A stretch of DNA of 64,000 bases, taken from assembly GCA_010093815.1 (NCBI GenBank), contig ML996577.1; one strand, written 5' to 3'. How positions within the stretch are numbered: the stretch's first letter is position 1; the number at the start of each line of letters is the position of its first letter. Below the pieces are notes generated by a model that saw only the letters and a list, made by a program, of their open reading frames with translations, searched no databases and was not told the origin of the DNA. Below, one piece after another: positions 2,517-38,691 of this stretch. The translations under genes and the position numbers were made by a program. This DNA is from Pseudovirgaria hyperparasitica. Its lineage: Eukaryota.

Positions 2517-2794
2517 ACTTCCGGCGAATAGGCCGAACGATCAGATTGGGTGACGGTGGCGAGCAACTGAGAAGAGAGAATGTATGAGGAGATGGCCGCG
2601 GATGGCCAATAGGTTGGGGGTGTTCGTCTGGCTTGAGAGTGTATTGATGTTGTAGCTGTGCAGAGAATTCTTGGTCAGATACCGGGTATTACAAAGGTTT
2701 GCAGAGAGAGAGAGAGTGAGCAGGGAGGAAAAAATGGCAGACTGGTGCCGAGAGTAGTGGAAAGGGAAGTATGGCAAGCGGGGAATTGTTGATG

Positions 2795-2814
2795 AATAGC
2801 TTGACGCGGATTGG
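2795..2814 (-). promoter_or_regulatory. Candidate CBC:HapX bipartite site (CCAAT-N12-ATT) upstream of GLT1
   Basis: Minus strand reads CCAAT CCGCGTCAAGCT ATT, about 280 nt upstream of the ATG of an Fe-S enzyme. The motif is short and degenerate. Confidence 0.35.
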
Positions 2815-5800
2815 TTGGGAGCGGGAGCGGTAGCGGAGAGCAAGCATCTACGCCCACCATGCCCGCCCTTCTCAAGCGCGCCCAGACCAGAGTCGGAGGC
2901 TCCATCCATTGACCATTAGTTGAGAGTCTGTCGGTGATAGCCTGTCCCTGTCCTGTCTTGTCGCAACGTAGGCACCGCTTTTATTTTGCTGGCAGCCGGT
3001 GTGCAGATCCGCGGACATGCGATGTATGCGATCGCTGCAGCAGATGCATATGACGCTGGCCCCAAGAGCATCTACCAATATTATTTGTTGGCGTACGACC
3101 TTTGGAGCTCTTATCGGTTTGAGAGCTTCGGCGAATGACATGTAGCCGGGTTTGTCGATACAGCGCCGTGCCGACCACGCCATGCACTGCACTGCATGCT
3201 TGCATCATGTCTGGCTGCCCTGCTGCTGCTGCTGCTGCTACTACTGACGGACGATGGGTTTTGGCATGGCAAAAGTGACATTGTGTGTGCTCTTCTTGAT
3301 CTCTCATCTTGGGCGGTCTTTCACGGACGGATGCCGGGCGGGGAAAGGAAGGGGAATGTCACACTTACTGTCTGTCGTGACTTCGTGGCCGTTCAATAGG
3401 CTCGCGACGGGGTCGTAGTGGTGGAAGGGCACGAAATCTAGGTGATAGGGTAAATAGTCTCGGAGACGTGGTGCGTGATGAGAAAAGCAGCGGAAAGAGG
3501 GAGATGTTTGTGGGGGGGATGTGGTAGAATTTATGTGCCGGCAGGCCACACCTAGCAGTAGTAACAGTAGTAGGAGTATCGTGTCCACAGACCGTTGCAT
3601 AGCCAAAACTCCAGTCTCCAGCAAAACTGCCACCATCCATGTCTCTGATGGATTGTGTACAATGGGTGATCTGGTTTAGGCGATATTTCATCTAGTTCTA
3701 GCGATCCCAAGATACACACCATCGGCTGGCCCCCCTCCCCCCCCCCTTCCCCGCGCCTCGAAGCAGATAATACTCCATAACAGTACATGGCTCCACTCGC
3801 AGTAGGCATAATTGATACAATTACTCATAACATCTTGGAGGTCGACACAGATTCGCAGATGTGCAACAGCTATCGCCCACGTCTTCTTCCCTCAAGATCA
3901 TCAGGTCTTGGCCACGACGCCGACAGCGGACAGCGGACAGCGGACGGAAGAATCTGGCTAGGAGGAGGGAGTGGGGAGGACCCAGTGGAACATGGTCGTC
4001 GTTGGTGGCAAGTACAAGTGAAAGGATGGATGGCGGACGAATAATTAATGGTAATGGTCAACGTCAATGATGGGCACAACCATACTAATATGTCAAGATT
4101 GTGTGTCTTGACGAGCCGCGGCCAAACTCGATGAGGAGCAGTGCAGTACCCCACGGTTCGTAGGGACGTGCACTGGTACTACTTGGGTTGGACTGCATGT
4201 TTTTCACGATCCGAGACCCACCCAGACCCCACTTATATTCAATGCCCCCAGTCGACGCACCAACACACACACGCACACCTCACGCACGCAAAAATATTTA
4301 GTACTGCTGTGGATGTGCATGTGCATGTGCATAGTAATTAGTACTCTTATGTATGTGATTTGACCTAGTACCAAGGGTAGGTAGGACGATTAAAGCCTTC
4401 TTCTTCATCTGTCGACGAATCAGCCCACGCCCGTTTCCTAATCCGCTTCTGTTTCCCGCAATTGGCTATAATTGATTTCCCTAGCTAATTCGGTACAGTC
4501 ATCTATTGACATTTGACCTATGATGCTTATCGCTGCTAGTCAATTACTACTCCCTCTCTCAACCTCCTCCGGGACTGCTACAAATACATGCCAAATCATT
4601 CTTATATCTTGGTCGTCGCCCGCAACCAAAACGACTGCTTGGTTGGTCTTCTGTAGTCACATTGAATCCATAGCTCGACTATGAACACGCGCCTCCGAGT
4701 CTATCTCACGTTTACTGTGGGCTCATAATAACGTGCACGTAATTACATCTTGCATGCAATCGGCGACTCGGACATCCACAGTCGAGTGTGGAGTGTGTGT
4801 GGACGAGGATATCTCGGAGTCGGAGCCCGCCGCGCCGCGCGCTTCGTCTTTGCTGCCAACTGCAGTGCCTCTCGGGCGTTTACGGAACTTACTCATCATT
4901 TTTCGAATTTTTGTGAGTCACGAGAACTGCTTTCCAGTGCCATCCAGGCCCCTCCACTCTCCGACATCGCTTGTGTGTGGACCCCTTTTGTGCCTTAAAA
5001 TCAATGGATGCTCCTTTCATCAACGTGCCGAGAATGTTGAGTTTCAAGTGAGCGACGGCACAACATAGGACCATCCCCAATCATCTCATGTCTGCCACGG
5101 ACCGAGAACATGGCTGTGGGAATGGCGTACGTCAGATCTGATGGGACCAACATCGGGCCCTACCCGCCTGGCACCTGTTGCGCAGCCTAGATTCAACCGT
5201 GATACAATGTTGCAGCCCGAGTTTAGGTATAATTACATATTCTCGGTCTCTCCTCTTGCTCTGGAGGGCAAGTTCACGGTCTTGTGTTATTAGCGGTACC
5301 TGCCAGCACTCCAAGCTCGTGGCTCGTAGAGTTCCCCGCATTGCCACACGTTCATTTGCCATGTACGCAATCCGCGACACGTGCTTAGAAGGCTTGCTCG
5401 ACAGCGTTGCTCGCTCACTTGCATCTCTTGAACATGCCTCATCGGGAGAAATACGCCTGCGCCGACGTACAAGTTGGCACCAGCCTCATGTGGGGGAGAG
5501 ATCGACCCTGTAAGGCGTTTGCACTGAAAACATGACTCTGATTCATTCAAACTCAGCAATTGTATTCAGATCTGGTAGGTATGCAGTTTTTATTTTGTAT
5601 ATGAGATGCCTCTCTCTGCATCTTGATGAATGATGGATGTCGGTTATTGCGAGCCCAAACAGGGTCAGCTGTCTAAAGAGTCGATGAATGACATGAATGA
5701 CTAAACTCCAATTCCTGCCCTGGTACCATGCGCGTGTCTTTTCTACCCAGAAGCCGGTAAAATAGCACATACCCGATATGTAAGTTTTGACAATAGTCCG

Positions 5801-12991: not shown

Positions 12992-14201
12992 TCATGTCAC
13001 CATAGCATCCCCATCACCTGCCCCATTCATCGATTCATCCTCGTCCCCATTTTCGGCATCTTCCGTATCGAGGCCCAACGGGATGCGTGAGGGAATCTCC
13101 TTCTTCTCTTCACGGGCAGTAGTTTCAGCCCATGCTCGGAGTTTTACTAGGTTCCTAATCCGCGCCTCCCGTCTTGCGCCATGAGACGCAAGTATGGCCT
13201 CGTTCACCATCGTAGCAACGTCCTGTCGCATGCCGGGTTCGAGAAGCCGATTGAGTTCCTCTGAGAGATCACCCTTCGGGAAAATCAGGAGCGCCATGGT
13301 CTGCTCAAGATCATCGAGGAACTCGCTCTTTGTGGGTGCTCGAGGGGCAAGCTCACTGGATGCAAACTCTATGGCAGGCATGATATCGGCGTTTGGTGTG
13401 GCCGTACATGTGCGAATCAGCCCGATAAGTTGTAGGCGGAGAAGTGCAAAGTGGAGGGCGGGATCTTTGTCCAGGATCTGGTGAGTCTCACATATTAGAC
13501 TGCTGGTAATGACATGTATACGAGGAAAGATAGTGATAGGTCATTGAGCTCATATTGAGAACTGAAGTATAGGTGTTGTATATCATCAAAGCCGAAGCTA
13601 TGAGTGGTGCATGAAAACAAATAATCATATCGAGAAGTGAAGAAAACGGTTGTATACACATACCTCAGTATTGAATTCGTTGATCTTCTTGATAGCCGAT
13701 TCTATATCACCATGATATATAGCATAGCGTATTTCAACGCGTGCCCGTAGTGAGTCTTCCTCGGTTGGTGGCTGAGTGTTGGCTTCTTGGATATTGGCCT
13801 CCTTGGCAAAATTTTCGGCTGCTGACGGGTAGCCTTCGTTGATTAGGTAGTCCAGGATAACATGGTTGATATCTCTACGACAAACCAGTCAGCTACTATG
13901 CGTCAGATACTGCTCAGCAAAGAATGAAGAGTTCAAGCAACAAGTGTTGGTCAGAGGTAAGTTTGTTCAAGTCTCCACATGGAATTTTCGGAGAGATTCC
14001 CAACTTTTGAGTACATCATATGAAATGCGAAGGGAAGAGAGATAGCGACAAAGTGGCACTTACGTCTTCGATGGCTTCACATTCTCAACCCGCGTCTCAA
14101 ATGGATGTCGAACATGGTCGCCGCCTGACACAGTTGAGGAGCTCTGAGCAGCGTTAACGAATTGCTGCTGACCACGCGAAGGCAAAACAAGAGTGTACCA
14201 T
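12992..14201 (-). CDS. GID8: GID/CTLH E3 ligase subunit Gid8/Twa1 (LisH-CTLH-CRA)
   Basis: Exons 14201-14199 (ATG only), 14143-14064, 13874-13664 and 13477-12992 stay in frame. LisH DINHVILDYLINEGYPSAAENFAKEA; ILDKDPALHFALLRLQLI; LEQTMALLIF. Confidence 0.88.
13541..13632 (-). ncRNA. Candidate intronic box C/D snoRNA with 18S rRNA guide (snR40/U32-like)
   Basis: In GID8 intron 3: C-like ATGATTA, guide CATGCACCAC (complement of conserved 18S GUGGUGCAUG), C'-like TGATGA, D-like ATGA. Confidence 0.6.
13947..14024 (-). ncRNA. Candidate intronic box C/D snoRNA with LSU rRNA guide
   Basis: In GID8 intron 2: C ATGATGT, guide TGGGAATCTC (complement of LSU GAGAUUCCCA), D' CCGA, C'-like ATGTGGA, D CTGA. 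Confidence 0.68.
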
Positions 14202-14642
14202 GGTGAAGGCGTAAGGTAGAGCCAGCTGCCTCACATTGGTGGAGCTTCAACGTTGCAAAAAGGAACCCAAGTTGTTATGGACGTGGGACGCGATGGTGAA
14301 AAATGGGATACGGACGTGTGTGGGCAGAAGCTGTAGCTGCGAAGGGACTTATGTATCGCCGAAGCCCGTCCGCTAATACCTAATTAGCCCTCGAGCTAAT
14401 CATCCGTGCTAGGACGTATGAGCATAAGTGTCTTGGCATCTCAATTCCATCCCCGTGCGTCTTTTATGGAACCACAAACGATGTTCGAGAATTTTACGGT
14501 AAGGATAATTACATAATGATCCTTTCGCTGCTCATTCATCTGAAGTATCAATCTCCTCTGTACATATAGAGATATCCTTGTAGTCATGATTTGATCTCTT
14601 ACTACGTTCATTCTATCATTCCTCCACTCGCATGTTTCCAGT

Positions 14643-21612: not shown

Positions 21613-21862
21613 TCCATGATACTTCGCGCGGGAAATCTTCGGCGGTATAGCCGTTCAAGTGCAAGGGTGGTGGGGGTCTGGGACCTATCCATTTTATATG
21701 CTTGGGGACATGACTCCTAAGCTACGGAACGTTTGAAAAGCAATACAGGTATGTACCAGTAGGTTCATGCTCATGCTAGATCATTCACTGACTGCAGTAA
21801 GTCAAGGCTGCTCCGCTTCGACCTTTGGAGCTTCACGTTTCTCTACCTCAATTCAACCCTGA

Positions 21863-21994
21863 TGTGGGATTCCTATTAGGTAATCCCCGTTACTCAGATC
21901 TTATTCAGCGTTAGGCTAGTATATATAGCACTTAGATAGACTTAGTAGACACGTTAATTAATTTTACCACGTCTAATTTACTAAAGTTCCTATA
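21863..21994 (+). repeat. 5' LTR (132 bp), followed by PBS-like T[A/G]GTAGC at 21997-22003
   Basis: Begins TGTGGGA; 122/132 identical to 36111-36242. Confidence 0.93.
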
Positions 21995-24900
21995 TCTAGT
22001 AGCTAAAATCTAGTTTTTATCCTCCTAGGGAGGCTATCGCTTTAGCGATACCTTCTAAGGGGTAGTTATCTTACCCCTTATATAAGGGAACTCGTTAAAA
22101 ATATTTAACGCTTATAATAAACTATATAACTTACTAGATAATAATAAGAACGAACCTAGAGTCTAATACGAAAACCCTTCTCTAAAGCGATATATCCTAA
22201 TTTTAGAGATAGAAATTACGGTAATAAAGCTTAACGACTAAATTTAATAGTCCTAGTAGATAGTAATATATTATAAAATAAGCTAAAAGAGTCATATAAG
22301 AAAAATATATATTAACTCCCTCTATATCTATAATAGATATTCTAGCTACTTATTAATATAAATTAACGCTATAATTCTAACTCGGAAGATAATTATTACC
22401 CTAGGAAACGCCTTCCTTACCTAAGCTATATTAAGATATCTTCCTTATAGAACCCTAATTATAATAGCGACGTCCCTATAGAAGAAGCTAATACTCCCTA
22501 AAATATAGAACGCGCCCGTAATAAGCCGTTAAATACTATTAACGCGCTTACCGCGCTCCTTAATACTAACCCGGCTATAAGAAACCTTACTAGAGACGCT
22601 CGTACGTTAGTACTAATTAATATATATACTAATTAACTCGAGTTATAAATAAGGAATAACTATATTACTCGAGAAGAACTAGTAAGAGACTTTAATAACC
22701 TCCTTCTTAATAACCCTAACTAGGCGAGCCTAGCTATACTAGTAAGAAGAGGCCGTATTCTACTCCGAGTACCTAATATATACTTAGGAGAAACTAGAGA
22801 TAATACCTACGAGGAATAGTACTTATTAATCTAGAAATAGATTTATACTATAGAATTAATAGAGCGCTAGTAGGAAGCTATACCTAAGTTCGAGAAACTA
22901 TAAATCTATAGAATATATATATTAAAGTATATCTATACCCTTTAGCGTAGTCTTATAGAAGCCTATAGACGTAATAACCTAGATAGTCCTTAAATACTAG
23001 ATAGCTTTCTAGACGTTATACGTTAAACGTATATCTCTACTAATTACTCTAAATAGCGTAGAAAGGAATAGGAGAACCTTACTTAATATTATTTTAGATC
23101 TACCTCGAAGCTTATTAACGCTATTATTAAAAAGGTATAACTTCTATAATCTATACCTTCTAAATATAAGATATAGCGTAGAATTCTAGGCGCCCTTAAG
23201 TCTAAGGTTTAATATAAGATTAAAAAGTAGCTCTTTCCTCCTATAGAATTAGAAGAGTAGTATCTATAGGTAAAGAGGCTAGAGAAAGCCTTATATATCT
23301 ACTCTAGAAACGAATACTATAGGCGGGAGGCTACTTATTATATTAATACTATATATTACTAAGACGAAGAGAAGAAACTAGAAGAATTTAAACCTTCTAA
23401 GGACTTATATATACACGAAGATAAATTAGGTAACTACTCTAGAGATAAGGGTAAGCTCTACGTATTTATAAAGCGTTAATAGAGTAACTAAGGCCGCGGT
23501 AGAGGCTAGAACTAAGGCTAAGGCCGTGGTAAATACTAAGGAGGCTTATTAAGAGCTCTTAACGAAACCTAAGAATGCTTTAACTATAAGAAGTTAGAAT
23601 ATATCTTAAGATTCTACCCTAAAAATCCGACTCTAGATAAGCTAGTCTATATTACTATTAAGGATAATACGTTAAGCGTCTTTAACGAAGAGGCCCTAAA
23701 AGCTAGTCGCCCGTAGTAGATATAGAAGATACTATAAGCGACTATAAGAGCTTCTATACTAATAATACTAATAAAAATAAGATAAATATATAGGACTATA
23801 AATATATTAACGCGCTTTATAAATCGCTAGAGAGTACCTACTATTATTAAGAGGAGTTAACGGACGTTATTAACGATCGTCTCTATTAACTAAACTCTAT
23901 TAGTAGATAGTTACTAGAACTTAAGGCTTACGTAGGGAAAGTCCACCCCTAGAGAGTTTTAGTCCTTATTAACTATAGGGCTAATAGAATATATACGTTA
24001 ACGAAGGTTACTAGACGTCTAAAGCTAGTACCGTAATCTACCCCTATAATACGTGTTAAGCTTCCGTTAGGAGCTCTAATAATAAGTTAAGAAGTTATAA
24101 AAATCCCTCTTTATATAGAAAGCTTTACTTACGAAGTCTCCGCGAGAGTACTTAACCTTAAGGGCTATAATCTAATTCTAGGTTATAAATAGCTTTATAA
24201 ATAGAATCCCGATATATTATAGAGATTCTATTCCCTAGTAATTAGAAGGCTAGTAGCTCGAGGAAGGACTAAGGAGTATCTCCTTAAGAGGATTCCCGTG
24301 TTAATTAATATTAACTTATAAGGAGAATAAGTACTAAATATCCTTACCGCTAGCTAAGCACGGAAATAATATCTAAACGGCTATAAGTAAGGTATAATAT
24401 AGTTTATTAGAAAAGATAACCCTCCTATACTATAGGCACCCGATCTAATACTATAAACGGTTTTAATAGAGTACTAGGACATCTTTAAAGAGAAGCTATC
24501 TAAAGGACTACTACCTTCGAGATAATAGGACTATAAGATAGATATAGGAGACGGCTGACCCGTTAATAACGCCGTCTACTACCTCTCCCTAGAATAAATC
24601 GCTAAATAGTAGAAGTAGATATAGAAGCTTATCGAGCGAGGGCTTATCTAAGAATTAGAAAGTGCCTAGGGTAGCCTAGTACTTTTCGTACCTAAACCCG
24701 GAGGTAAATAGCGAATATATATTAATTATTAAGTACTTAATATACTTACATATAAGGATACGACCCCTCTTCCGTGTATAGATAAATATCTACGTGCCTT
24801 CGGCTAGTTAATAGTATTTAGTAAGATAGACTTAACCTTAGGGTTTTAGTAAGTACGAGTAGCCGACGAAGACGTCTCTAAGACTACCTTTAATATAATT

Positions 24901-25008
24901 TATAGTAAATATAAGTTTAAGATAATACCGTTTAGTCTATTAAACGCACCTACTACATTCTAAAAGATAATAAATCGAGTCCTTTAACCCCTACTATATA
25001 AATCCGTG

Positions 25009-28000
25009 ACCATTAAAAACTTCTTACACCCTAACGGACTAAACTAGTTAATTTAGGGCAAAACAGCGATTTACATACATTAAACAATAGAGTATACCAA
25101 GTATAACAACCTCCGACACACGTGCGTACGTATAGTATATAATACGCGACGATACTAACGTATAGAGATACTATATATATACACTTAAAGACTCTTCGAT
25201 AATACGAGCATAGACTATATCTAATAAACGCCGATACGCCGACCCCCTTTTATTAGTTAAGGGCTACCCTTAACTAATAACCATGGCGGCCTTAGGCATT
25301 ATAATACCCTAGTATACACCGGATATACCCCTACTAGTACGGTAGAAACGGCTATATAGCGATATTAATATGGATAGCTAGACACCTATCTAAAATATAG
25401 GAACTAACTAAGGGTGCGAAGCGCTATAGATAACCTAGACTAAGGGGACCCCGAGAGGGGAGACCCTCCTAGATAAAATTAAATACTAGGTAACACGTGT
25501 AGAGAGGGACGCCGAGGAGGGAAAGAAGACCCTCCTTCATATATTCTAGGAACTTATCTAGAATCTAAGAGGAATCATAGAGGAAGAGAGGAAGTCGCCA
25601 TGAGAGGAACCTAGTAGTAGGCTTAACTAAATAGAAGCTAGTCTACGGAGAATCTAGGAAGAGCTATCCTAAGGTAAGCGCCCTAACATGTAGGCTTAGA
25701 TTATAGTAATACCCGGAGCCACCGTACTAAGGACTACTAGGACTATAGATAGAGTATATAGTATACGTATTATAATCTAGAATAAGGACACGCTAGCGTA
25801 GGTCTAATAGGTATCTCTAAAGGAAATTATAAATAAGATTAATAAATAGAAAGGAATGTAGTCGAGCGTCGTGGCTACTAAAGTTACGCTAGGTAGGGTA
25901 GTACTTACTACTATAACGAATACTATATAGTAAAACATCTCGCGAGATCTAAACGTAATAGATAGTATCTTCCCCGGCGCGTCTATTAGAGTAGCTATAT
26001 ACCCGATTATAGTACACGTAGTACCCGTGCGGGGATAGGCTATCGGAGCAGAGGATATTACGCGTATAGAATAATCCAACACGCGAAAATACCTAGGGAT
26101 TAAGATCGTGAAAGCGTAGTAGAAGAACCTATAGGCGATTAAGATAACGGCGAAAAAACACTCTACTATAATTATAGAGCTCCGAGACCCCGCCCTCGTA
26201 TAATATATTATATAGAAGGGATTCCTAGTAGAAGGAGAGCTCCTTATGGCCGAGCCATAGAATAGGGTATAGGTAATAATATAGTGCTTTAACTATTAAG
26301 GGTATAGATATACTATATAAAGATACTTATAGAAGACTAAGTGCGGATAGTACCGTGGGGACCACGCTACCTAGGAGTACCCTTATAAACCGCGAGGAGA
26401 CGGGCTAAGAAATAGGGATATAGTATAGTATTTAAACTACGACGGGAAACACCCGTTATAGTCGTTAACGTATATAAAATATAAATAGGTTATAGAATAT
26501 ATTCGCACGATAAAAGCGAGAGGCGCGAGATAGTTATAGAATATAATACCTACTACGGGCCCTTCCTTTATAATACCCCTAACCTCCCCTCCGGAAGATA
26601 GTTAGGTAGGGTAGTAGATTATTCTAAAGATAATAGGACGACTAAAAGGTATAGTTAAAGCCGCTACCGCGCGAGGATAGTCGCGCCTCCGAGGAATAAG
26701 TATATAGATATATATACTCTCTAGTATCTAATAAGGGACTAGAATATACTCCGAATTATATAGATAAATATATAATATAAAAGAGAGAACTAGGCGACGC
26801 TCCTCGAAGAGACCGGGGCTATAATACTCGCTATCTAGAAACTCTATAAATACTACTAGACGAGTAAACTAACCATACACCCCGGATACTATACTATACA
26901 CCCTCTAGGACTAGAAAGACGAGTCCTCTTCTATATTTATAGGTTAATACTACTCTTATTATAGTCGTATACCGAGCGCGATAACCTTAGGATAATACTA
27001 CACCTATAAATAGATATAGGCCCCCTATATATATATAACATATATAACTAATAACGTGTACTTATACTAGACGAGATGCTCGAGGGTACTACGGAACTAG
27101 GGTAATATATCCTTCTAGGAGACTTTAACCTCCACTACTAATAGTAGGGAGGCCTAGCCGTGGTTAGAGAAGAACTTAGAGTAAGGGAACTACACACCCG
27201 CTGCCACGACTTTCTATACCTACTTACATCTATAGAATAAGTTATATAGAAAAAATATAAATAGGACGAAGACGGGTCCACGCTTAACCTTACCTTCGCC
27301 ACGGAGTATATTAGTTACTAGATCTAATACTACCGCCTAGGCTAGGTATAGACGGATTCCGACTATAAATATATAGAAACCATAATAAACGTATATACCC
27401 CGAATAAATAACGGGGATAATAGATATAGAAGGACACCGACTAGGAAAAGTACCTAAAGGACCTAGAATCGGCGATCCTAGATCCCTCTATAGTCGATAT
27501 ATCTAATAACCTAGCTATAGACTAGGCCGTATAGATACTCCTATAAATATACTAGAATACGAGAAATAAACACGTACTATACTAAATATACCGGCCCCCG
27601 GAAGCAAAGGGGATTCCTCGAGTACGGGAAAGTAGATAAGACGCCCGAAGACTATATAGACGCGTATACTATACGAGAACACCCGAGTCGTAGGAAGAAT
27701 AGAAGGAAGCGATATAATAACGCGATAAAGTTCTCTATAACGAAAGGCGTAAATAGTAGCGTATAATTACTAGTTAATAGATACGACACGTAATAGGGCT
27801 ATAGCGTATAGCGAAATGGGCTAAGGGCGTAGACACTCTAACACCCCCGCTACTTATACCTCCCCTAATATATTAGGGGAGAACATACTCTACGAGCCTT
27901 AAGAAAACTAAGGCTCTATAGAAGGCCATGTTCCCTCTCCCGGAACTAGTAGACCTATTAGACGTTTATAACGCCGAATACCTATATACGGTAGATATCC

Positions 28001-30295
28001 CTAAAGAAGTTACGGAGAAGGACATACTTAATATTATTAAGATACTCCTAAATGATAAAGTACCCGGACCAGATGGAATTCTAAATCGATACCTAAAAAG
28101 AACTATAAAAGCGACCCTACCGCTTATTACTTATATATTCTAAGTATACGTTACGTAGGGGTACCACCCCTAGTACTTCCGAGTCGCCTATACTATTATA
28201 CTCCCGAAACTAGGAAAGAGCCCTAACTCCCTAAAGGGATAGAGACTAATCGCCCTTCTCTCCTACCTAGGTAAGATACTAGAGGCTATGATAGCGAAGA
28301 AGATAAGTACCGCGGTATAGGAATATAATCTCCTCCCTCCGAACTAGAAGGTAAAGATAGATAGCTCTCTAATAATAGCTATCTAATATATTATCGAAGT
28401 CGTCTAGGCCGTATAGAAGTAGGGACGGGTAGTATTACTCCTCTCTCTCGATATAGCCGGAGCGTTTAATAAGGTAAACTATATAAGACTTATTTATAAC
28501 CTCTAGATAAGACGAATACTAGAATGGATTATACGCTTTATATAGTTATTCCTTATAGAAAGAATAACTTAGATATATATCTCTAGGTACTAGAGCGAAT
28601 ATAAAGAGACGGTATACGGCATCCTATAAGGGAGCACCATCTCTCTAATTCTATTCCTCTTCTTTATAGTAGACCTTCTTTAAGGAATAAAGTATATAGA
28701 GGTAGTCGGATACGCCGATAATATATACCTCCTAGCTATTAATAATAATACTAACCGAATGTATAGACAACTAGAATAGGACTATGAGAGATACCTCTAG
28801 TAGATAAAACGCTACGGAGTAAAGTTCGCCCCGGAGAAATACTAGCTTATATACTTTATTAATCGTTAAGGGAAATAGGTAACTAGGGAAGGCGAACGAC
28901 GCCCCCGAATCGACGCATTTAACGAACTACTAGTATAAAGTATACGCGCGCTCGGAGTTATACTAGATAGTAAGCTTAAATAGGGACCATAAGTAGTATA
29001 CGCCGTCTCTAGGGCCCTTTAGATAGAAGCCGCTATACGACGGATTATAGCCTCTATATAGGGAACCGCCCGGGATAAGGCACGCCAGCTATATATATCT
29101 ATAGTACGACCCGCCTTCATGTACGGACACGAGTACTAGTATACGGCCCTTATATAGACTAGGCGAATAAAGCTCGAATCTATATAGAACCGTATACTCC
29201 GTCTTATATTAGGCGTATATAAAGCTACTAACACGGTGCTACTACGACGCGAGATAGACGTTATAAGTATATATAACTTCTACTAGATATAGAGGGTGGT
29301 ATACTTTACTAAATAATAAGTATAGGAACGTATAGGAAACGTAGAATATACTTTCGCCGCGCTACATACACGAATTAGTATATATTACCGCGCACTCCTA
29401 TATATAGGCCAGAATCGAATACGGTATAGGTGCTTAATAGAAGCCGACTCTAGCTAAGTAGTATAAGAAGTCCGAGATAACCCGGACGCTCTCCTAGACC
29501 GGTAGAGCCTTTAAGAACTCGTGAAAAACATACGGTCGTGGACTTAAGATAAGTAGAAAGAGATACTCCGTGCCTACTAGGCCTCCTAGTAGGATAGGTA
29601 CCTAGAGTAGATTTAAGGGCCATAGAAGGAACCGAGTAAATAGATATATAAAGGGCTAACGAAAGCCTAAGTATCTATACTTATCTAAGCCCGAACGGGC
29701 GCTATGGGACTCCTATACTATATCTATAAGAGAGGCGTTCCTAATACCTCTCTATGGTATAAGGCGTACGGCCGGAGAGGTATAATACGCTACTATCTAG
29801 CTATATACCCTAACCTCTATATATAACGGTAATAGCTTATCCACGTCACGAAGACTTTAGATATTGTATAATAGCTTAATAAGTACCCTAAGGACGTCTC
29901 CCGATAGATACTTATATATCTACTACTTCTCTAGTACTAGTGGACCTAGAAATATATACTAGAAGAGACCCGGTATACGCTGGCCGCAACCCGATATATA
30001 CCGATAGAACCCCGGGAGAACCCCGATTATTAGTTAAGGGCTACCCTTAACTAATAACCTCCGCACCTATACGTACTACCTAAGGGCGAAATAACGGTAA
30101 TATAGACTATAGGCTAATAGGCGTACCCTATAGCTATATACTTAAGACGAAATAGAGGTTTAACGAGATATAGTTATAGATATAAGGAAGTTTTTCCCTA
30201 TGGGGTTTCTTCTTATATAGTAGCTTAGACTAGAGGAGGCATAGGCCTATAGAGTACTACTCTACCTAGTTATATAATATTATTATTATTATTAT
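25009..30295 (+). mobile_element. Non-LTR retrotransposon (LINE, Tad-like), RIP-mutated, inserted in the Gypsy RT
   Basis: 14-bp TSD TATATAAATCCGTG (24995-25008 and 30296-30309) and a 3' (TAT)n tail. ORF1 CCHC knuckles (~26282, QCFNCQGYGH after reversion). ORF2 endonuclease (~26770) and RT motifs VPGPDGILN (28058), LDIAGAF, GIPQGS and GYAD, plus a C-terminal CCHC (~29755-29810). Confidence 0.93.
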
Positions 30296-33200
30296 TATAT
30301 AAATCCGTGGTTATATACCTTAATAATATTATTATCTTTTCCGAAGATATAGAAGAACACGCTAGAGTACTATTAAAAGTACTTACCCTACTCCGTAAAT
30401 ACCGCTTACTTACTAATCTAGAGAAATATAGTTTTAGCTAGACCGAAGTTAACTTCTATAGATACCACGTCTTATAAGGATAACTTCGCCCGATAAAGGA
30501 TAAGATTAAGGTAATTCGCGAATAGCTAGAGCCTATAAACGTTAGCGAAGTCTAATAGTTCCTTAGTCTAGCGAATTATTATTAGAGATATATCTAGGGA
30601 TTCGTAAGTATTACCGTACCTCTAATAGACCTCCTTAAGGAAGTAGACCCTCTTATCTATAAATAGAAATATAGACCTATTCGATAGACGCTATTAATAG
30701 CGTTTACCTTTAAGACCCTAAAGAATACCCTATATTCCGAACCGGTTCTAGCTTAATCTAATAAGACTAAGCCCTTCTATATTAAAACGGATATAAGTAA
30801 CTATATAATTGGTATAGTAATCTACTAGAAGGATTCTAGTAAGTAGTATTAGCTAATCGCGTTTAACGGACGAAAGCTTAATGGCGCTAAGCTTAACTAT
30901 CCGGTTTACGAAAAAGAACTCCTTACTATTAAATACACTCTATATACTTAGAGATACCTACTAGAAATGAAGAAGACGATAATTCTAACTAATTACTATA
31001 GTCTATAGTTCCTTAAGTCTATAAAGGAATAAGGAGGCTATATAGATAGATAGATTAATAAGTTCGGAAGCTTCGATCTCGATATAAAATATCGCCTAGA
31101 ATCTAAGGCGGTAGTACCTAACGCCATTAGTAGAAGGCTAGACTTCTAAGGCGAGATCTCTATAATACTATTAAGTAAAGTTAATAAATACGTTCTTATA
31201 GTCTAAATTATTAAGTTTCTAAAAGGAGCTAACCCGATAGAGTATATACTAAAAGTCTCTCCCGAAATTCTATCTTAACTATACCTTAACGCCGAGAGTA
31301 AACTTCGATATAAGCTATAGGATTTTAATAATAGTTAAGAAGATTTAGCGGAAAATTTAGCGTCTTATATCCCGGAATAATACCGTAAGTCGCTAGTAGA
31401 AACTATATATTAATAATTCGGTTACTTTATATGGCCCGGACTACTAGGAGCCCTAGAAAAATAAGGCTAGTAGTTTAAAATAAAGAAAGACGTAGAGGTA
31501 GTCGCTTATAATTACTATTAATACTAATTAGCGTAACGAGTACTACTAAATCTATAACACGAGAGATAGTTTTATAGAGTTATACGCCGAGCATCCTTTA
31601 AAGAATAGAGTATCGACTTTATAGGCGTACTTCCTACTATATATAATAGTAATAGTTAGATAATAATAGTAATTAACTATATAACGGGATGGCCTATTAT
31701 ATAGATAGTCCCTAAGGCGACCGTAGAGTCTATTACGAGGTTCATTTATGAATAAATCTTTATAGATTTTAGACCCCCCGCCGCACTAACCTTAGATAAT
31801 AGTTAATAGTTTCTATTAAGAGTAGTTAACGCACTACTACGCATCCTTAAGACGGAATATAAACTTACTACGCCTTATTACCCTCATATAAACGGAAAGG
31901 TTAAATACCTTAATAGAACCTTAGGAGATATCCTTACCTATATATATATAGGCGAACTAGTAACTAACTAGAATATATACTTACTAGCCGCTATTTTTAC
32001 TATAAGGATCCGACGATATAGAAGTATAGAAGTTAGTCTATATTATCTAGTATATAGATAGTACCCTAACTTACTAGGGAATATTCCTAGAGAAAAGGCT
32101 AAGTTAATATCCTTTAACGAACTTATTAAGCGAGTTAAGAAAGTATAATACGCTAGGACGCTAGCGCTAAATAAACTACTTATAGAAGCCGCTTACCGAG
32201 ACCTTATAGATCCGACTTAGCTTAAACCTAAAGACTAGACGCGACTATCTATTAGTTAAATTATTTTACTAAAGAATAAATAGAAAACGAAGTTTAAAAC
32301 GAACTACTTAGGTCCCTATAAGGTTCATATATAACACCCCTTAGATATATACGCGCTAGAAACACCTAATAGACGTATCCTACGACACCTTATATATAGT
32401 AATAGGCTAATTATAGTAAGAGATATTAATAAGCTAGATAACTTCTAGACGAGATAGAAGATTAACTTATAAATATCTAAGGAAATTAGAAATTAAGTAG
32501 TACCTTACTTACTAGATATTAAGAAGGTTTTAGAGAAAGAGAAACCTACCCTATATTAGATAACTCTATCCTCCCTTCCTAAGAAGGAGTAGAACCGGCT
32601 ATAGTAGCTATAAAGTTAACGAGAGTTAATATATAAGGGCGTACGTTTATTCTTAGTAGGGGAGAGCTCGATAGACGTAGATATTACGCGTTAAATTAGA
32701 CTTACTAATATAAGAAATCGACGTAAACGGAGAGCTACTATAACTACGTTAATTACACTAGTACTAATCATTATTAATAAACTAAGAAATATACTAGAAG
32801 AATAACACGAGAATAGCGGAGCGATATAACCGCCGATAATAAATATTAAAGAGAGCTATAATACTCTAAGGGTAGAGGAAGCCTAAATAATAACTAAGAA
32901 ACTAATAGATAACCTATTAAACGAGATTAACACGGTAGAGAAAGCCACGATAGAAGCGAGATAGAAAGAATTACCTAAAGAAATAAGCTTAGGAGACGAG
33001 TTTAATAATACACGAATAGACTTAGATAAGAATATCTAACTAGAATATAAGAATCCTATAAGTATAGATATAGACTCGGATATAGAAGAAGTATTAAAGG
33101 AGGTTAACGAAGCGAATAAATAACCCCTAACCGACTTAGACGTCCCTATATAGAATCTTATAGAAAGCGAACCTTATACGCGAAAGAGAAAGCGATTCTA

Positions 33201-33329
33201 TATAGATAAACGTAGTAGAGAAACCTAAGCGGCTATAGCTAGCGTGTTAAGATAAGTTAATAGATTAGAGGGAGAGAGATACTCTCTACGGAAAAAGATA
33301 TTACCTTTAAAGCTATTATAGAAAAGCTT

Positions 33330-35670
33330 AGAATATAACTAACTTTAGTCTTTCCCTAATTATCTCCTTTATATATAGTACTACTAACCCCCTATTTACT
33401 TATTTAGAATATATATAGCCGTTAAAGAAGATTAACGAGCCTTAGAAATTACTAGAAGGTTAAAGAAAGAAGACGTGGACTTATAATAATATTATATAAG
33501 TCTAAAATTACTATTTAAGAACCGTAAGACTAAATAGAGATAAAAGAAAGCCGTTAACGCCTTTTAACGCTTAATAAGATAGGGTATCATTATAAAATAG
33601 AAGCCGTCTACTTAGTCCTAGACCTTACGAGTAGAATTTAGTAGATTCTTCGTAAATTATACTAATACCTTCTCGCCCTCCTCGGGCATGCTATTATTAA
33701 TTAAGAACTTATATAGTAGCCCTTAAGGTATATAGCTAATCTCGCTAAACGCGTTTATCGGATGACTAAACTAATCTTTAACGGCTTCGTTAAGCGGAAG
33801 TCCTTTATCTTTAAGGTTCTATATAGAATAAATAGAGATGATACTTAGGTTAAGAGATATAGTATTATTAAAGCTAGGAACGAGGACCTCTAGACCGCCG
33901 TAATACATCTATTCTATTATAGCTATAACCTTTTAATTAGCTAGAGATTATATAAGATATAAATCTAACTCACGAGCGAAGGACTAGCCTTAGAGTTTAA
34001 TCTAGTCTTCTTAAGACCTAATAACTTCTTTTAATAAAGTTTAGTAGCCGAATATTTTCTAGTAGCCTTAGTTATCTCTATAAATAAAGACTACTCGGTA
34101 TATTAGTACTTTTTAATAATATTACGCTTACTACGGTATACTTTAGGAACGTGTTAAATCTATTAAAAGTCTTTAACGATATAAAGGAATAACTTATAAC
34201 GCGATATACTATAGAATTTCCTATTCCCTTAGTAGAAATAGTTTAAATAGGTACCTTTAAATAGTAGGAACCCGTTAGAAAAAAGCTATATATACTCCCT
34301 AAAGATGCCTTTACTAGTAGAATAAGAACTATAGGCGCTATCGCTAAAGTACTAGTATACGCCACGAGCTATTATACCTAGAATAGCTAGAATAGTATAG
34401 GGATATAATCTATCTAGACGTTTCGAAGGATCCTAAAAGATCCCTTCTTCTATTATAATATTCTAAGGATAATAGTAGTTACTAAACTTATTTATTATAT
34501 AGAACGGAAGTAGATTCTTTAGAATTAAGGCGTGCTAACCGCTAGTATACGCCTTAATAAGGCTATTAATAAATTTCTTATAGAGCGCTCCGTTAATAGA
34601 AGGGTCCGAGAATAGCTACCCTAGAATAAGTTAGCTAACCGTTAAAGATAATTAATAAGATAAGAACTTACTCTAGTAAGCTAACTACTATATAAACTTA
34701 ATAGACTTCCCTAAAAAGAAGTAGTAATTAGATTAAACTCGGAGGTCTATATAACCTACCACTTCGATCTCGGTATTACTATAGCTATTAAGTTTATTTA
34801 CCGTAGGTTATGCTATCGTACTAACCTTATAAGAAGCTATAGACCCCTTTTACTTTATAGAAGTCTTCTTAATAACCTTATTAGAACTTTTAAGGTCTAT
34901 AATAGCTAGCTTAGAAGTTATAGAGCGAGTTTTAGGGCTATTAAATATCTTTAATAGAGTCCTTACGGTACTATAGATCTTTACTAGAGTCCTAGATATT
35001 CTAGGACGAGAGCCTAGATAAAAATTAGGAACTAGAATCTTAATATAAGACTTAGCGACTTACCTTTCTTAGTTACCTTAGAAGTAACTATATTACTAAG
35101 CTTATTAACTTTAATTAACGTATTACTATTAAGGTCTAATAACCTAGAGCTTTCTCTATCTTTATTTTTAGAATAGAAAATATTATTAGAGTCTTCTAAT
35201 AGATTTATAAACTAACTAGCTTTTATAGAGGCTTCGAAGAGCTTATTAAGGGTAATTAATATAGACTCCGGATCTATAACTTTACCTAGAAGATCTATAT
35301 AGATTAGCGGGATTCTTATAGAAGGGTATATTAAACGAATTATCTTCTACCTTAGGAAGAGGCTTATTAATAGCTATTACTAATCCTTAAGAGGCTAGAG
35401 CCTTAACTTTAGTCTTAGAGACCTTAGGTTTAAGGCTCTAACCGCCTTCTTCGATTAACTAAGCTAAAGCTTTATCTTCTAGGTCTAGTTCTTAAAAGAA
35501 TAGCGAACCCTAAGGCCCGTTTAGATATAGATAGCTATAGACTATCTTTAAGTAACTCTTATAAACTATATAGTTAATCTATACTTAAGAAATAAGGTAA
35601 CTTAACCTACTATCTAGAGTACCTTTATTTACTACTAATACTTTATTAAGTAATAACTAATTAGGATTTC
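33330..35670 (-). pseudogene. Putative antisense, intron-containing extra gene inside the Gypsy 3' region (RIP-destroyed)
   Basis: Minus-strand introns 35063-35014 (GTAAGT..CCTAAT..TAG) and 34671-34621 (GTAAGT..GCTAAC..TAG). Flanking frames read as protein with only TAA/TAG stops. Boundaries are approximate. Confidence 0.55.
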
Positions 35671-36110
35671 TATACGGAGGACCTAAGAAAGTATAATAAA
35701 GATCCTTATTTATAACTATATCTACTATAGAAAGTTTAAGTTAGAAGGGAAAAAGGTAAAGTTAAAGTTTATATATATAAAATTATAGTATTAATTAGAG
35801 TGATTTCTAAGTTCGTAGGAGTTTTAGCTATATTATTAGATATTATTAAAAGGATTTAGCGCTAGAAAAACTAAGGAAAAGATTAAATTAGTTAAGAAAT
35901 ATAAGGTTAAAGGATAGTAGAATATAGAAATAGTAAAGGTAACTATTTAGTACTAAAATAAGCTTAGACCACCGCCCTTACACGACGTGTTACTAATATG
36001 GCCTAGCGCTAAAGAGATTTTATATACCTACCTCCCTATATTATATATTCTAACTCTATTAATTATCTTTAACGGTCTTATAGGAGCTTATATAATTAGA
36101 AGAGGGAAGA

Positions 36111-36242
36111 TATAGGATTCCTATTAGGTAATCCCCGTTACTTAGATCTTATTTAGCGTTAGGCTGGTATATATAGCACTTAGATAGACTTAGTAGACAC
36201 GTCAATTAATTTTGCCACGTCTAATTTACCAAAGTTCCCACA
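36111..36242 (+). repeat. 3' LTR (132 bp), preceded by polypurine tract AGAAGAGGGAAGA (36098-36110)
   Basis: Ends TCCCACA; direct repeat of the 5' LTR. Confidence 0.93.
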
Positions 36243-36394
36243 CTGAGCTTGGCTATACAGCAGGACGTAAAACTACGTTCTCTATACAATTGGAAACCCG
36301 GAGTTTTGCACAGATATACAACAAACTGGGACAAATCAGCAAACAAGTGGTTCACAATCTTATCCATATCGTTCAGCGGGCCCTCTAAGAAACA

Positions 36395-37578
36395 ATGGCG
36401 ACCCCAACATCCTCACAAATCCTGCCCCCAAAGCCCTCTTCCTCCGACTTTGACATCGTCGCCACCTACCGACGCCTCCTCGCCTCTGATCCAGACCTTA
36501 CAATGCCCATTGCTGCTATAGAGGCTCTTGTCGAAGCTCTCTCACATTCCAGCGCAACTACTATCTCTGAAACCCTCACCCTTCTCGAGCACCACACCGC
36601 GAACCTGAAGCGCTCCATCTCAAACCCCATCTCCCTGTCCGCAGGTACAGACCTCTTCCGGCGATACCTATACACCACTGTCCAAAAACCGGGCGCCACG
36701 GGCGACTTCCAGGCAATCCGTAACCATCTGTTGAGCAATGGGCGACAATTCGTAGAACGTACGAAAGCAGCAAGAGACCAAATAGCATCTTTCGGACGGC
36801 ATTTTGTGCGTGATGGAACGACAGTGCTGACGAATGGCGGGAGCAGAGTTGTGGGCGCATTACTACGCTCCGCTGCAGATGCGTCTGGAGGCCGCACCAG
36901 TATTCGCTTCCGCGTCATCTACGTGCTCTCGCCTAGTACCTCCTCATCTTCGTCCTCAGACAAAGCATCCACACTTGAAGGTGAAGGTGCCGCAATTGTC
37001 TCCATGCTACGAAGTCGCGGTGTGCCTGTGGCCACAATCCCCGAATCGGCAGTCGCATACTCTCTCCCACAAGTTAGCATGGTGATCGTAGGCGCTGAAG
37101 GCGTTGTCGAAAGTGGTGGAATTATATCAAGACTAGGGACATACCAGATGGGCATGCTGGCGCGCGCGGCGGGAAAGCCATTGTATGTTGTTGCTGAGAG
37201 CCATAAATTCGTGCGGTTGTACCCGTTGGGGCAGTATGACCTAGGGATCGAGCAGAAGGTGATTGAGTTCAAGGTCATTGAAAACGGCAAGGAAGAAGTT
37301 GTGGAAACGGAGAGAGGGACACCGCTTGTAGGTGGGAGCGCGAGGATGTTGGATGAAGGTGTTGGTATGGAGGACGAAGTTGGCAAGGAGGAAATGGAAG
37401 GGGTTGACGAGGCTGTTGATTTCACAGTATGTCTCGAGCTGCCTCAAACAGAAGGTCCAGACGTTCCATCATGCTAACATGCACTTAGCCACCCGAGCTT
37501 ATCTCTGGCATCATCACCGAATCCGGCGTGTTGACACCGAGTGCAGTCAGCGAAGAGCTCATCAAGATCTGGTTTTGA
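36395..37578 (+). CDS. GCN3: Translation initiation factor eIF2B alpha subunit
   Basis: MPIAAIEAL, ISLSAGTDLF, VIVGAEGVVESGGIISRLGT and AESHKFVRLYPL. Intron 37427-37488 gives VDFT|PPELISGIITESGVLTPSAVSEELIKIWF. Confidence 0.95.
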
Positions 37579-38691
37579 CGTAAGCATGTGGCCGCATAGT
37601 CCAGTCGACATAGCAATCAAGACATATCGGTGGAAAACCGAAACGGGAGCTGCCGAAAGATCTGTTAGGACAATCTCAGCTTGATTGTTTGGTCACACAA
37701 AGCCGCGAATCCTGCCTCACGAGAGCAATATCCAGTCAGACCGCAGCGGTAACGTACGATCTTTGCACATAGCACATTTACAACGTCCCTCATGCGACGA
37801 ATATCTGCGACACAGGACTCGACCAAACGCCTTACCCACTCCAACTCGTGAAAAGGAATCTATCTGAGCCTGCCTACAGACCAAGAGAGGTTATACCTAG
37901 CTACGTGTATCTGGTAGGCAGATAGGGGCGTGCATTATAGAAGCATGGTTTCTGACCAGCCTACGAAAGGCGCGGCTGCACGAAGAAACACGCCCGAAGT
38001 CCAACAACCTCCTAGACAACACTGTGACATGTATCTAATACTATATAAACATCAACTTAAGCCCGAAAAATACATGCTGTGTATTGTGTCCGACTCCTGC
38101 ATTGCTCCCACATGACGCCACAACACGCCACGCCACTTCACTCGTCTTGCAGAGAACTCCTTACTCCTAACCAGAACGCAAACCTTGCAGTTGCTCCTCG
38201 CTACCACAGTCCGTCAATAAGCTTATTGATATTTATATATCTCCTATAGTTGCATTGATGAATGTGAGATGCTTATAGCATTAATCCTGAACGACAGTTG
38301 CGTTCCAGTCAAGAACCACGGCATCGAGTTGACAGATACACAGCCTTCGCGCTCATGTACGCGTGCAAATACAGAGCATGTTGTAGGAAGATAAGTTTGA
38401 AACTGGGCATTTACCAATAAATGTCACTTTCGACGTAATAAGCTGATGCGCGCGTGTGATGTGTGATGTGTGACGTGTGCTGGTGCTCTGATTTCTGCGT
38501 TCTGGCAGGAGCGATACCTCCAACTTCCTGCTCTATACAGGAGTGTAACTTATTTGCTAATACATACAACACCCCACTGAGGCATTCCCCAGATTCGCAT
38601 TTGTGGACCTCTAGTATGGCGTTTCGTGGTCGCATCAGGCGCATAGAGGCATTCATCCATTCATTCATAAAGCCTACAACTCCCTAACAGC

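Follow-up and report, generated by a model that had tools for sequence, protein, structure and literature searches.

A candidate intron-bearing antisense gene in the 3' spacer of a mutation-ridden Ty3/gypsy retrotransposon from Pseudovirgaria hyperparasitica

The stretch of Pseudovirgaria hyperparasitica contig ML996577.1 (GenBank assembly GCA_010093815.1) analyzed here, hereafter the window, comprises 64,000 nucleotides (nt) and has a GC content of about 50% except at 22000-36200, where it drops to 29-42%. The whole low-GC block is one long terminal repeat (LTR) retrotransposon of the Ty3/gypsy type, which occupies 21863-36242 (14.4 kb, or 9.6 kb without a nested long interspersed nuclear element, LINE) and whose pol gene is separated from the 3' LTR by a spacer of about 2.8 kb. 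On the minus strand of this spacer, the removal of a 50-nt canonical intron (35063-35014) joins two stretches with unusually few stop codons into a single frame of 148 codons. We give a probability of roughly one half to the reading that a real ancestral spliced antisense gene with one intron lay at 35346-34853.

The element and its spacer

The element is bounded by a 5' LTR of 132 nt (21863-21994, plus strand), which starts with TGTGGG and whose end has been changed by repeat-induced point mutation (RIP) to ..CCTATA, and by a 3' LTR (36111-36242, plus strand), whose start has been RIP-changed to TATAGG and which ends in ..CCCACA. The two LTRs are evident as a 130-nt direct repeat with 94% identity (21861-21990 and 36109-36238), and their ends read TGTGGG..CCCACA, each end showing RIP transitions in one of the copies. 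The target-site duplication (TSD), CTGA, is found at 21859-21862 and again at 36243-36246. Loose ends of other genomic copies begin at 36242-36246, which fits the end of the 3' LTR. A polypurine tract (PPT), AGAAGAGGGAAGA, at 36098-36110 on the plus strand directly abuts the 3' LTR, and the sequence following the 5' LTR, TCTAGTAGC.., could by eye be a RIP-changed primer-binding site of the TGGTAGC type.

The gag-pol region extends over 21995-33300 on the plus strand, follows the frame of coordinate modulo 3 = 1 from about 23650, contains RIP stops throughout and is interrupted by the LINE. Pfam recognizes RT_RNaseH_2 (6.9e-21) and RT_RNaseH (1.2e-17) in plus frame 1 at 30706-31044, and the translation of 30700-32400 aligns over its full length with P0002 at 43% identity (E 1e-141). 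P0002 is an intact 1119-residue protein combining reverse transcriptase (RT), RNase H and integrase (PF00078, PF17917/19, PF00665 and PF17921). The RNase H matches and this full-length alignment identify the element as Ty3/gypsy, in which direct LTRs with TG..CA ends and a TSD accompany a pol gene in the order RT, RNase H and integrase.

The composition of the block at 21991-36108 departs strongly from that of its flanks. The TpA/ApT ratio is 1.7-1.8 (0.66-0.70 in the flanks), the (CpA+TpG)/(ApC+GpT) ratio is 0.08-0.2 (1.26-1.28 in the flanks) and the GC content is 0.30-0.40 (0.50 in the flanks), while TGA has nearly disappeared, with 3 and 2 occurrences on the two strands. The skewed dinucleotide ratios indicate that RIP has come close to saturation, and this copy of the element is dead through saturating RIP. 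In the pol frame, every 50 codons contain 2-3 stops as far as about 33300, beyond which the number is 6; this rise, together with the PPT at 36098, delimits a spacer of about 2.77 kb (33301-36097), bearing out an earlier note on this DNA that had placed a gap of about 2.7 kb between pol and the PPT.

A spliced reading frame on the minus strand

The same note had described two textbook introns and a possible third on the minus strand of the spacer. All three motifs are present in the sequence, the first two exactly where they had been placed. Motif 1 (35063-35014, 50 nt, phase 1) reads GTAAGT..CCTAAT..CTAG; motif 2 (34671-34621, 51 nt, in frame) reads GTAAGT..GCTAAC..TTCTAG; and motif 3 (35610-35566, 45 nt) reads GTAGGT..TTAAC..TATAG and lies where all six surrounding frames are closed. 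Only motif 1 is supported as an intron, the other two standing as motifs alone. It combines GT..AG ends, a branch-point motif and a length usual for fungal introns, and its removal restores a reading frame.

The evidence for motif 1 lies in the frames on either side, here numbered -0, -1 and -2 on the minus strand. Frame -0 is open over 35346-35034 (104 codons with at most one stop, the longest such run on the minus strand of the gypsy part), and frame -1 is open over 35062-34852 with no stops at all. The last stop in frame -1 is the TAA contained in the GTAAGT donor (35062), and the first in frame -0, at 35034, is intronic. Removing the 50 nt therefore joins frame -0 to frame -1 and yields 148 codons with one stop. 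Putative exon A (35346-35064, frame -0) has 94 codons plus one base, with a single TAG at 35214-35212; putative exon B' (35013-34853, frame -1) has 53 stop-free codons, followed by a TAA at 34852-34850. Other copies carry C at 34851 (plus strand), so that this codon is TGA and likewise a stop. Because splicing restores the frame between two unusually open stretches, the intron at 35063-35014 is regarded as supported.

This arrangement differs from the one first proposed. A single frame of about 145 codons over ~35500-35064 had been described. That is incorrect, as the reading switches frame near 35300. Frame -1 is fairly open over 35560-35299 (5 stops in 87 codons) and nearly closed over 35298-35065 (20 in 77), and the clean frame beside the intron is -0, with one stop in 78 codons. 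Nor does the frame shift between motifs 1 and 2, as had been thought; frame -1 continues throughout, with 6 stops in 113 codons, the first 53 of which are stop-free.

The gain from splicing was compared with several backgrounds. Splicing at 35063/35014 leaves 1+2 stops in the 75+75 flanking codons; among virtual 50-nt introns placed elsewhere in the RIP block (about 10,500 per strand), 0.9% on the minus strand and 0.45% on the plus strand perform equally well or better. Within the gypsy part, twelve further loosely defined intron candidates yield spliced open reading frames (ORFs) of 0-79 codons, compared with 148 here, and a candidate with its donor at 25908 reaches 143 codons but lies inside an unspliced 171-codon run of the less mutated LINE. 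Spliced runs of at least 148 codons appeared in 0 of 2000 first-order and 0 of 2000 second-order Markov simulations, and runs of at least 100 codons in at most 0.1% of the same two sets. Unspliced runs of at least 104 codons arose in 2-3% of simulations.

To compare the strands, stop densities were determined in the sense, the offset antisense and the codon-aligned antisense frames, with pol as a control. Per 50 codons, pol has 2-3 stops in its sense frame, 0-3 in the offset antisense frame and 3-6 in the aligned antisense frame. When the minus strand is taken as sense, exon A has stops in 1/78 codons, its offset partner in 2/77 and its aligned partner in 7/78; the corresponding values for exon B' are 0/53, 1/53 and 4/53. 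Both exons thus show the ordering seen around pol. When plus frame +2 is taken as sense, its aligned partner would leap from 20/77 stops (26%) to 0/53. At pol the offset antisense frame matches the sense frame in openness, so that the coding strand cannot be told from openness alone.

Motif 2 is unlikely to be an intron. Its 51 nt leave the frame unchanged on removal, and splicing brings no gain, with 10 stops in 150 flanking codons (66th percentile of the background). Much of it, 29 of the 51 nt, is the left arm of an inverted repeat. Since the stop at 34852-34850 precedes motif 2 and is TGA in other copies, motif 2 may lie past the end of the ORF. Motifs 2 and 3 are probably chance occurrences.

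The inverted repeat has its left arm at 34638-34666 (plus strand; 29 nt, 86% complementary, the outer 20 nt at 34638-34657 perfect) and its right arm at 36048-36076 (minus strand; outer 20 nt at 36057-36076), 21 nt upstream of the PPT. The perfect 20-nt stretch has two matches in the window, against none expected from 100 shuffles, and the arms bracket 1.44 kb that include the ORF and its presumed promoter. The arms show no TSD of 2-9 bp. Six occurrences of a near-palindromic motif (..CTATTAA...TCTTTAA..; roughly 18-26 nt), which reads L-K-x-F-N on either strand, are spread over the spacer, at 34159, 34937, 35534 and 36055 in direct and at 34642 and 35180 in inverted orientation.

Elsewhere in the spacer, three minus-strand frames are as open as pol, namely frame -1 over 34620-33960, frame -0 over 34368-34080 and frame -2 over 33900-33450. 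They are not joinable by canonical introns, and no canonical intron of the right phase was found at the switch from -1 to -0 near 34365. In 33300-33900 and 35560-36100 no frame is open on either strand.

Other copies, related elements and neighboring features

Two DNA sequencing runs, X1 and X2, were used to assess other genomic copies through summed contig depth, which is not copy number and derives from patchy alignments. In X1, spacer bins have depths of 2889-4700 and pol/gag bins of 2080-4607, compared with 317 in the single-copy flank; the corresponding values in X2 are 1159-2737, 1482-2277 and 275. Individual contigs from other copies connect 32286-33368 with 33872, and 33960-34032 with 34914-34968 and on to 36082. 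The pol-like depth and the linking contigs argue against an insertion private to this copy. The earlier note had considered that the region might be a separate insertion lacking from other copies; instead, pieces of the spacer are found elsewhere, in the same order and at a depth like that of pol. At 34638 and 36076, where the inverted-repeat arms end, contig depth does not change abruptly.

Contigs of two further runs, X3 and X4, skip a 62-nt GT..AG host intron (37427-37488) that those of X1 and X2 retain, and both runs were therefore treated as RNA. This intron (GTATGT..GCTAAC..TTAG) belongs to the neighboring plus-strand gene at 36389-37600, which is eIF2B-alpha-like (Atlas score 0.93, PF01008) and whose nearest Atlas clusters are from Ascomycota. 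Over the spacer, the RNA-like runs contribute one 55-nt piece only (34914-34968, in X4). In that X4 contig, the 30 letters preceding 34914 are homologous to 34884-34913 but GC-rich, bearing little or no RIP; they show 14 identities, 12 transitions and 4 transversions. Within nine codons, this 30-mer has both a TAA and a TGA in plus frame +2, and it is free of stops in minus frame -1; the four transversions sit in two codons, one of them I/L in frame -1. As the homologue is only 30 nt long and class matches (purine or pyrimidine) of 24-25/30 arise by chance at other offsets, it is weighted modestly. The gypsy pieces 22344-22393 and 34914-34968 (X3, X4) align to contigs with GC-rich adjoining letters, and the presence of such letters in RNA-like runs indicates that a family member with little or no RIP exists and is represented there.

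Homology searches against large protein libraries used two queries, 33960-35011 on the minus strand and 34082-35482 in plus frame +2; exon A was not among them, and the first query (frame -1, 350 residues) contains only 53 residues of the supported ORF. Among 1.84 billion representatives, the sole match to this first query was a tandem-repeat protein, judged spurious. The word-indexed search likewise returned no match for 33960-35011 on the minus strand and no relative for the plus frame +2 query. Exon A compared with the PDB gave nothing below E 0.46. Pfam, applied to all six frames and sub-frames, found no domain in the spacer; it also failed to detect the element's own RIP-damaged integrase, gag and protease, so blanks from Pfam in the spacer carry little weight.

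Related elements were found with the RIP-damaged pol as a query, which matched seven metagenome loci; six-frame tblastn of the spacer against these seven loci gave no match at E <=1. Two of the loci, L001 (6947-15109) and L002 (6924-15087), are degraded 8.2-kb gypsy elements located on large contigs from a single JGI record. Their LTRs measure about 135-190 nt, pol ends 2.2 kb before the 3' LTR, and the general layout matches that of the present element. Similarity in pol is only about 65%, the 3' regions could not be aligned, and L002 contains a 160-codon low-complexity ORF on the minus strand (13812-14294). The intact relatives P0002 and P0018 are encoded on metagenome contigs of 7.9-8.1 kb, and P0002 as a query found no match among the genome contigs or viral contigs.

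The nested element is a LINE-like non-LTR element of 4.8 kb (25241-30059, plus strand), inserted within the gypsy RT and flanked by 42-nt direct repeats (25241-25282 and 30018-30059), each including a 31-nt palindrome. Pfam identifies RVT_1 (2.4e-13) at 28231-28893 and, weakly, Exo_endo_phos_2 (E 0.031). The LINE is less RIP-mutated than its gypsy host, with a GC content of 0.40, and its summed contig depth is 40-100x that of the gypsy bins. The RNA-like runs X3 and X4 contain LINE contigs of 4.0-4.4 kb at about 85% identity, whose differences are mostly T>C and A>G, suggesting that LINE copies free of RIP are transcribed. Antisense to the 5' part of the LINE, 25779-26292 on the minus strand gives a nearly stop-free reading of 162-171 codons, the longest in the RIP block, which may represent either an antisense LINE ORF or a by-product of sense coding.

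Weighing an antisense gene against its alternatives

Under the reading to which we assign even odds, the spacer would be an integral part of a 9.6-kb Ty3/gypsy family and would carry the wreck of a small antisense accessory gene. Extending over 35346-34853 on the minus strand, this gene would have had at least 148 codons, interrupted by a single spliceosomal intron of 50 nt (35063-35014) and terminated by the stop at 34852-34850. Intact copies would transcribe it from an internal promoter in the approximately 750 nt between the ORF and the PPT, against the direction of gag-pol, and its intron would survive retrotransposition because the sense-strand genomic RNA offers no splice substrate. The predicted product is a small protein without a recognizable domain; this protein, or the antisense RNA, might modulate expression or replication of the element itself, by analogy with proposals for similar ORFs. 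The idea of an antisense accessory gene put forward in the earlier note thus survives in a smaller and more tentative form, with one intron; the function suggested there, as cargo or an anti-silencing factor, found no backing in the analysis.

Several observations weigh against such a gene. Stops make up 4-5% of pol codons compared with 0.7% in the 148-codon ORF, and, as saturating RIP turns CAA, CAG and TGG into stops, a single stop in 148 codons would require an ancestral protein nearly free of Gln and Trp, which is unusual. Antisense runs that are mere by-products do exist, with 96 codons opposite pol (33173-32885) and 171 in the LINE. Two strand models, a codon-usage model trained on the element's pol and a RIP-invariant Markov model of purines and pyrimidines for which 15 host ORFs served as the training set, both lacked the power to separate the strands (31 of 60 windows correct in leave-one-out assessment), and the AT skew of the spacer is near zero rather than reversed. 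A 1-nt indel within the 28-nt zone where the two frames overlap would account for the switch of frame with no need of an intron. As RIP has erased nearly every TpG, a start codon cannot be assigned. Neither antisense nor spliced RNA was seen in the unstranded contigs of the two RNA-like runs, which have next to no spacer cover, and the library, Pfam and PDB searches gave no homologue of the product.

The intron motifs by themselves occur at about chance frequency. On its minus strand, the 14.1-kb RIP block contains four instances of the strict pattern GTAAGT..CTAA[CT]..YAG, of which two are antisense within gag-pol or the LINE (24132 and 27227), and Markov simulations of the region gave a mean of 0.48-0.50 strict candidates, with a probability of 0.08-0.09 for two or more. 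For GTAAGT alone, the minus strand of the block has 14 instances and the plus strand 4; seven of the 14 lie antisense to pol (30060-33329) and two in the spacer region. Base composition predicts about 4.6 per strand, compared with the 14 observed antisense and 4 sense to gag-pol.

The spacer might accordingly hold no gene at all and be a long non-coding 3' untranslated or regulatory region, its open frames and intron-like motifs having arisen from the RIP-skewed composition and the many frames inspected. The chance rate of the motifs, the absence of a homologue, domain or RNA from the searches made, the closed frames in 33300-33900 and 35560-36100, the undecided strand models and an ORF too clean for a gene saturated with RIP all suit this explanation. 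It has to contend with a spliced run of 148 codons that none of the 4000 simulations reproduced, with an unspliced run of 104 codons reached in only 2-3% of them, with partner-frame stop densities that resemble those of pol, and with a frame switch that falls exactly within a canonical intron; we consider it unlikely. A coding region could also lie on the other strand, as a third sense ORF in plus frame +2 (~34082 to 35300 or 35480) that was perhaps env-like, with a leucine-rich hydrophobic segment at 35065-35298. This would need neither an intron nor an indel, being one unbroken frame with 24 stops in 409 codons, similar to pol; the codon model slightly favors +2 in 33960-34620, and the pol control shows that an antisense partner can equal its sense frame in openness, so that the minus-strand frames would be antisense by-products. 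The segment 35065-35298 would, however, be about 30% Leu with no Tyr or His, the frame has four stops in 16 codons at 34621-34671, and its aligned partner would pass from 26% stops to none next door. With the TAA and TGA in the GC-rich 30-mer, and with no relative of this frame in the word-indexed search or in Pfam, the sense-strand ORF appears quite improbable.

Two further explanations accept an antisense ORF and differ on its origin or extent. The antisense unit might have arrived as a mobile or duplicated cassette (34638-36076, 1.44 kb, resembling a DNA transposon or a miniature inverted-repeat transposable element) that was then amplified with the element, an account of origin that is compatible with a real ORF. 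Its attraction is the inverted repeat, perfect over 20 nt where shuffling predicts none and 86% complementary over 29 nt, whose identity peaks at the outer ends as in terminal inverted repeats and whose arms bracket the ORF and its presumed promoter; the missing 2-9 bp TSD, the lack of a transposase-like match, the even contig depth across 34638 and 36076, and the fact that the arms hold a near-palindromic TTAAAG..CTTTAA motif recurring in the spacer (four direct and two inverted copies) leave it a slim prospect. A longer antisense gene, from ~35560 to 33420, would have 550-650 codons in several exons, following frame -1 to 34370, frame -0 over 34368-34080 and frame -2 over 33910-33420, with the stop at 34852 being a RIP-hit Trp codon. 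The stop frequencies along this path are pol-like at 5-7% (14/219 in frame -1 over 34620-33960 and 8/150 in frame -2 over 33450-33900), frame -0 over 34368-34080 is a 96-codon run with at most one stop, and one of the other copies carries an additional base at 33960, the point at which a change of frame is required. Yet no canonical intron of the right phase lies near 34365, the sole GT..AG pair there being 51 nt and in phase; intron 2 is unsupported; the codon at 34852-34850 is TGA in other copies, and its origin from TGG would need the disfavored mutation of CpC rather than CpA; and the 350-residue query covering that part had no relative among the 1.84 billion representatives. We regard this extended gene as very improbable. 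A broader version of the one-intron antisense gene can also be formulated, in which the gypsy family fixed an inverted-repeat-bounded passenger cassette of 1.4 kb (34638-36076), comprising a promoter and an intron-bearing antisense gene for a small Gln/Trp-poor protein of no known family, which would keep its intron through reverse transcription and act on silencing or expression of the element; taken as a whole, this combination is doubtful at best.

The layout proposed for the antisense gene has been published before and is not new; the spacer would be a possible further fungal case. Passages of PMC7264820 and PMC8365987 describe antisense extra ORFs between pol and the 3' LTR in maize Grande, rice RIRE2, Silene Retand and Phaseolus PvRetro13 and, outside plants, brtn of Boty in Botrytis cinerea and Sclerotinia sclerotiorum, and state that the products of such ORFs resemble no known protein and are without known function. 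According to the same passages, the plant ORFs are present in most copies of a family, show no similarity to other proteins and are of unexplained origin, and a regulatory role has been proposed for their protein or antisense RNA (PMC7264820, PMC8365987). BRTN is also mentioned in PMC4227169 and PMC5987419, the former describing Boty-like elements with a CHROMO domain. As far as these partial accounts go, the likeness to Boty consists of an ascomycete Ty3/gypsy element with a reverse-orientation extra gene of no known function between pol and the 3' LTR, a comparison that draws on position and orientation, not on the BRTN sequence. The element described here has short LTRs of 132 nt and no detected chromodomain, which RIP may hide. 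The original description of brtn is reportedly that of Zhao et al. 2011, Virology 417:248. Position and orientation are likewise what Grande, RIRE2 and Retand, as portrayed in those excerpts, have in common with this spacer; the plant elements are far larger, introns go unmentioned in the passages of PMC7264820 and PMC8365987, and the putative gene is read here from a single RIP-destroyed copy.

Antisense accessory ORFs near the 3' end of a reverse-transcribing element also invite an analogy with animal retroviruses. HBZ of human T-cell leukemia virus (HTLV) is a spliced antisense retroviral gene. A section of PMC8156140 presents ASP of human immunodeficiency virus 1 (HIV-1) as an antisense gene of a complex retrovirus. 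Both genes differ from the present case in their animal retroviral hosts and in transcription from the 3' LTR, and neither has any sequence relation to it, so the analogy is one of layout only.

In the accounts cited above, antisense extra genes of LTR retrotransposons are recurrently seen and functionally unexplained, with brtn of Boty as the one fungal example found in them. The RIP-wrecked copy described here serves as a pointer to intact, apparently transcribed relatives in the same organism rather than as evidence in itself. If the antisense gene is real, it would represent a second, unrelated fungal family with an intron-bearing antisense gene, indicating that this layout is recurrent in fungi, and it would mean that antisense cargo could retain introns through retrotransposition.

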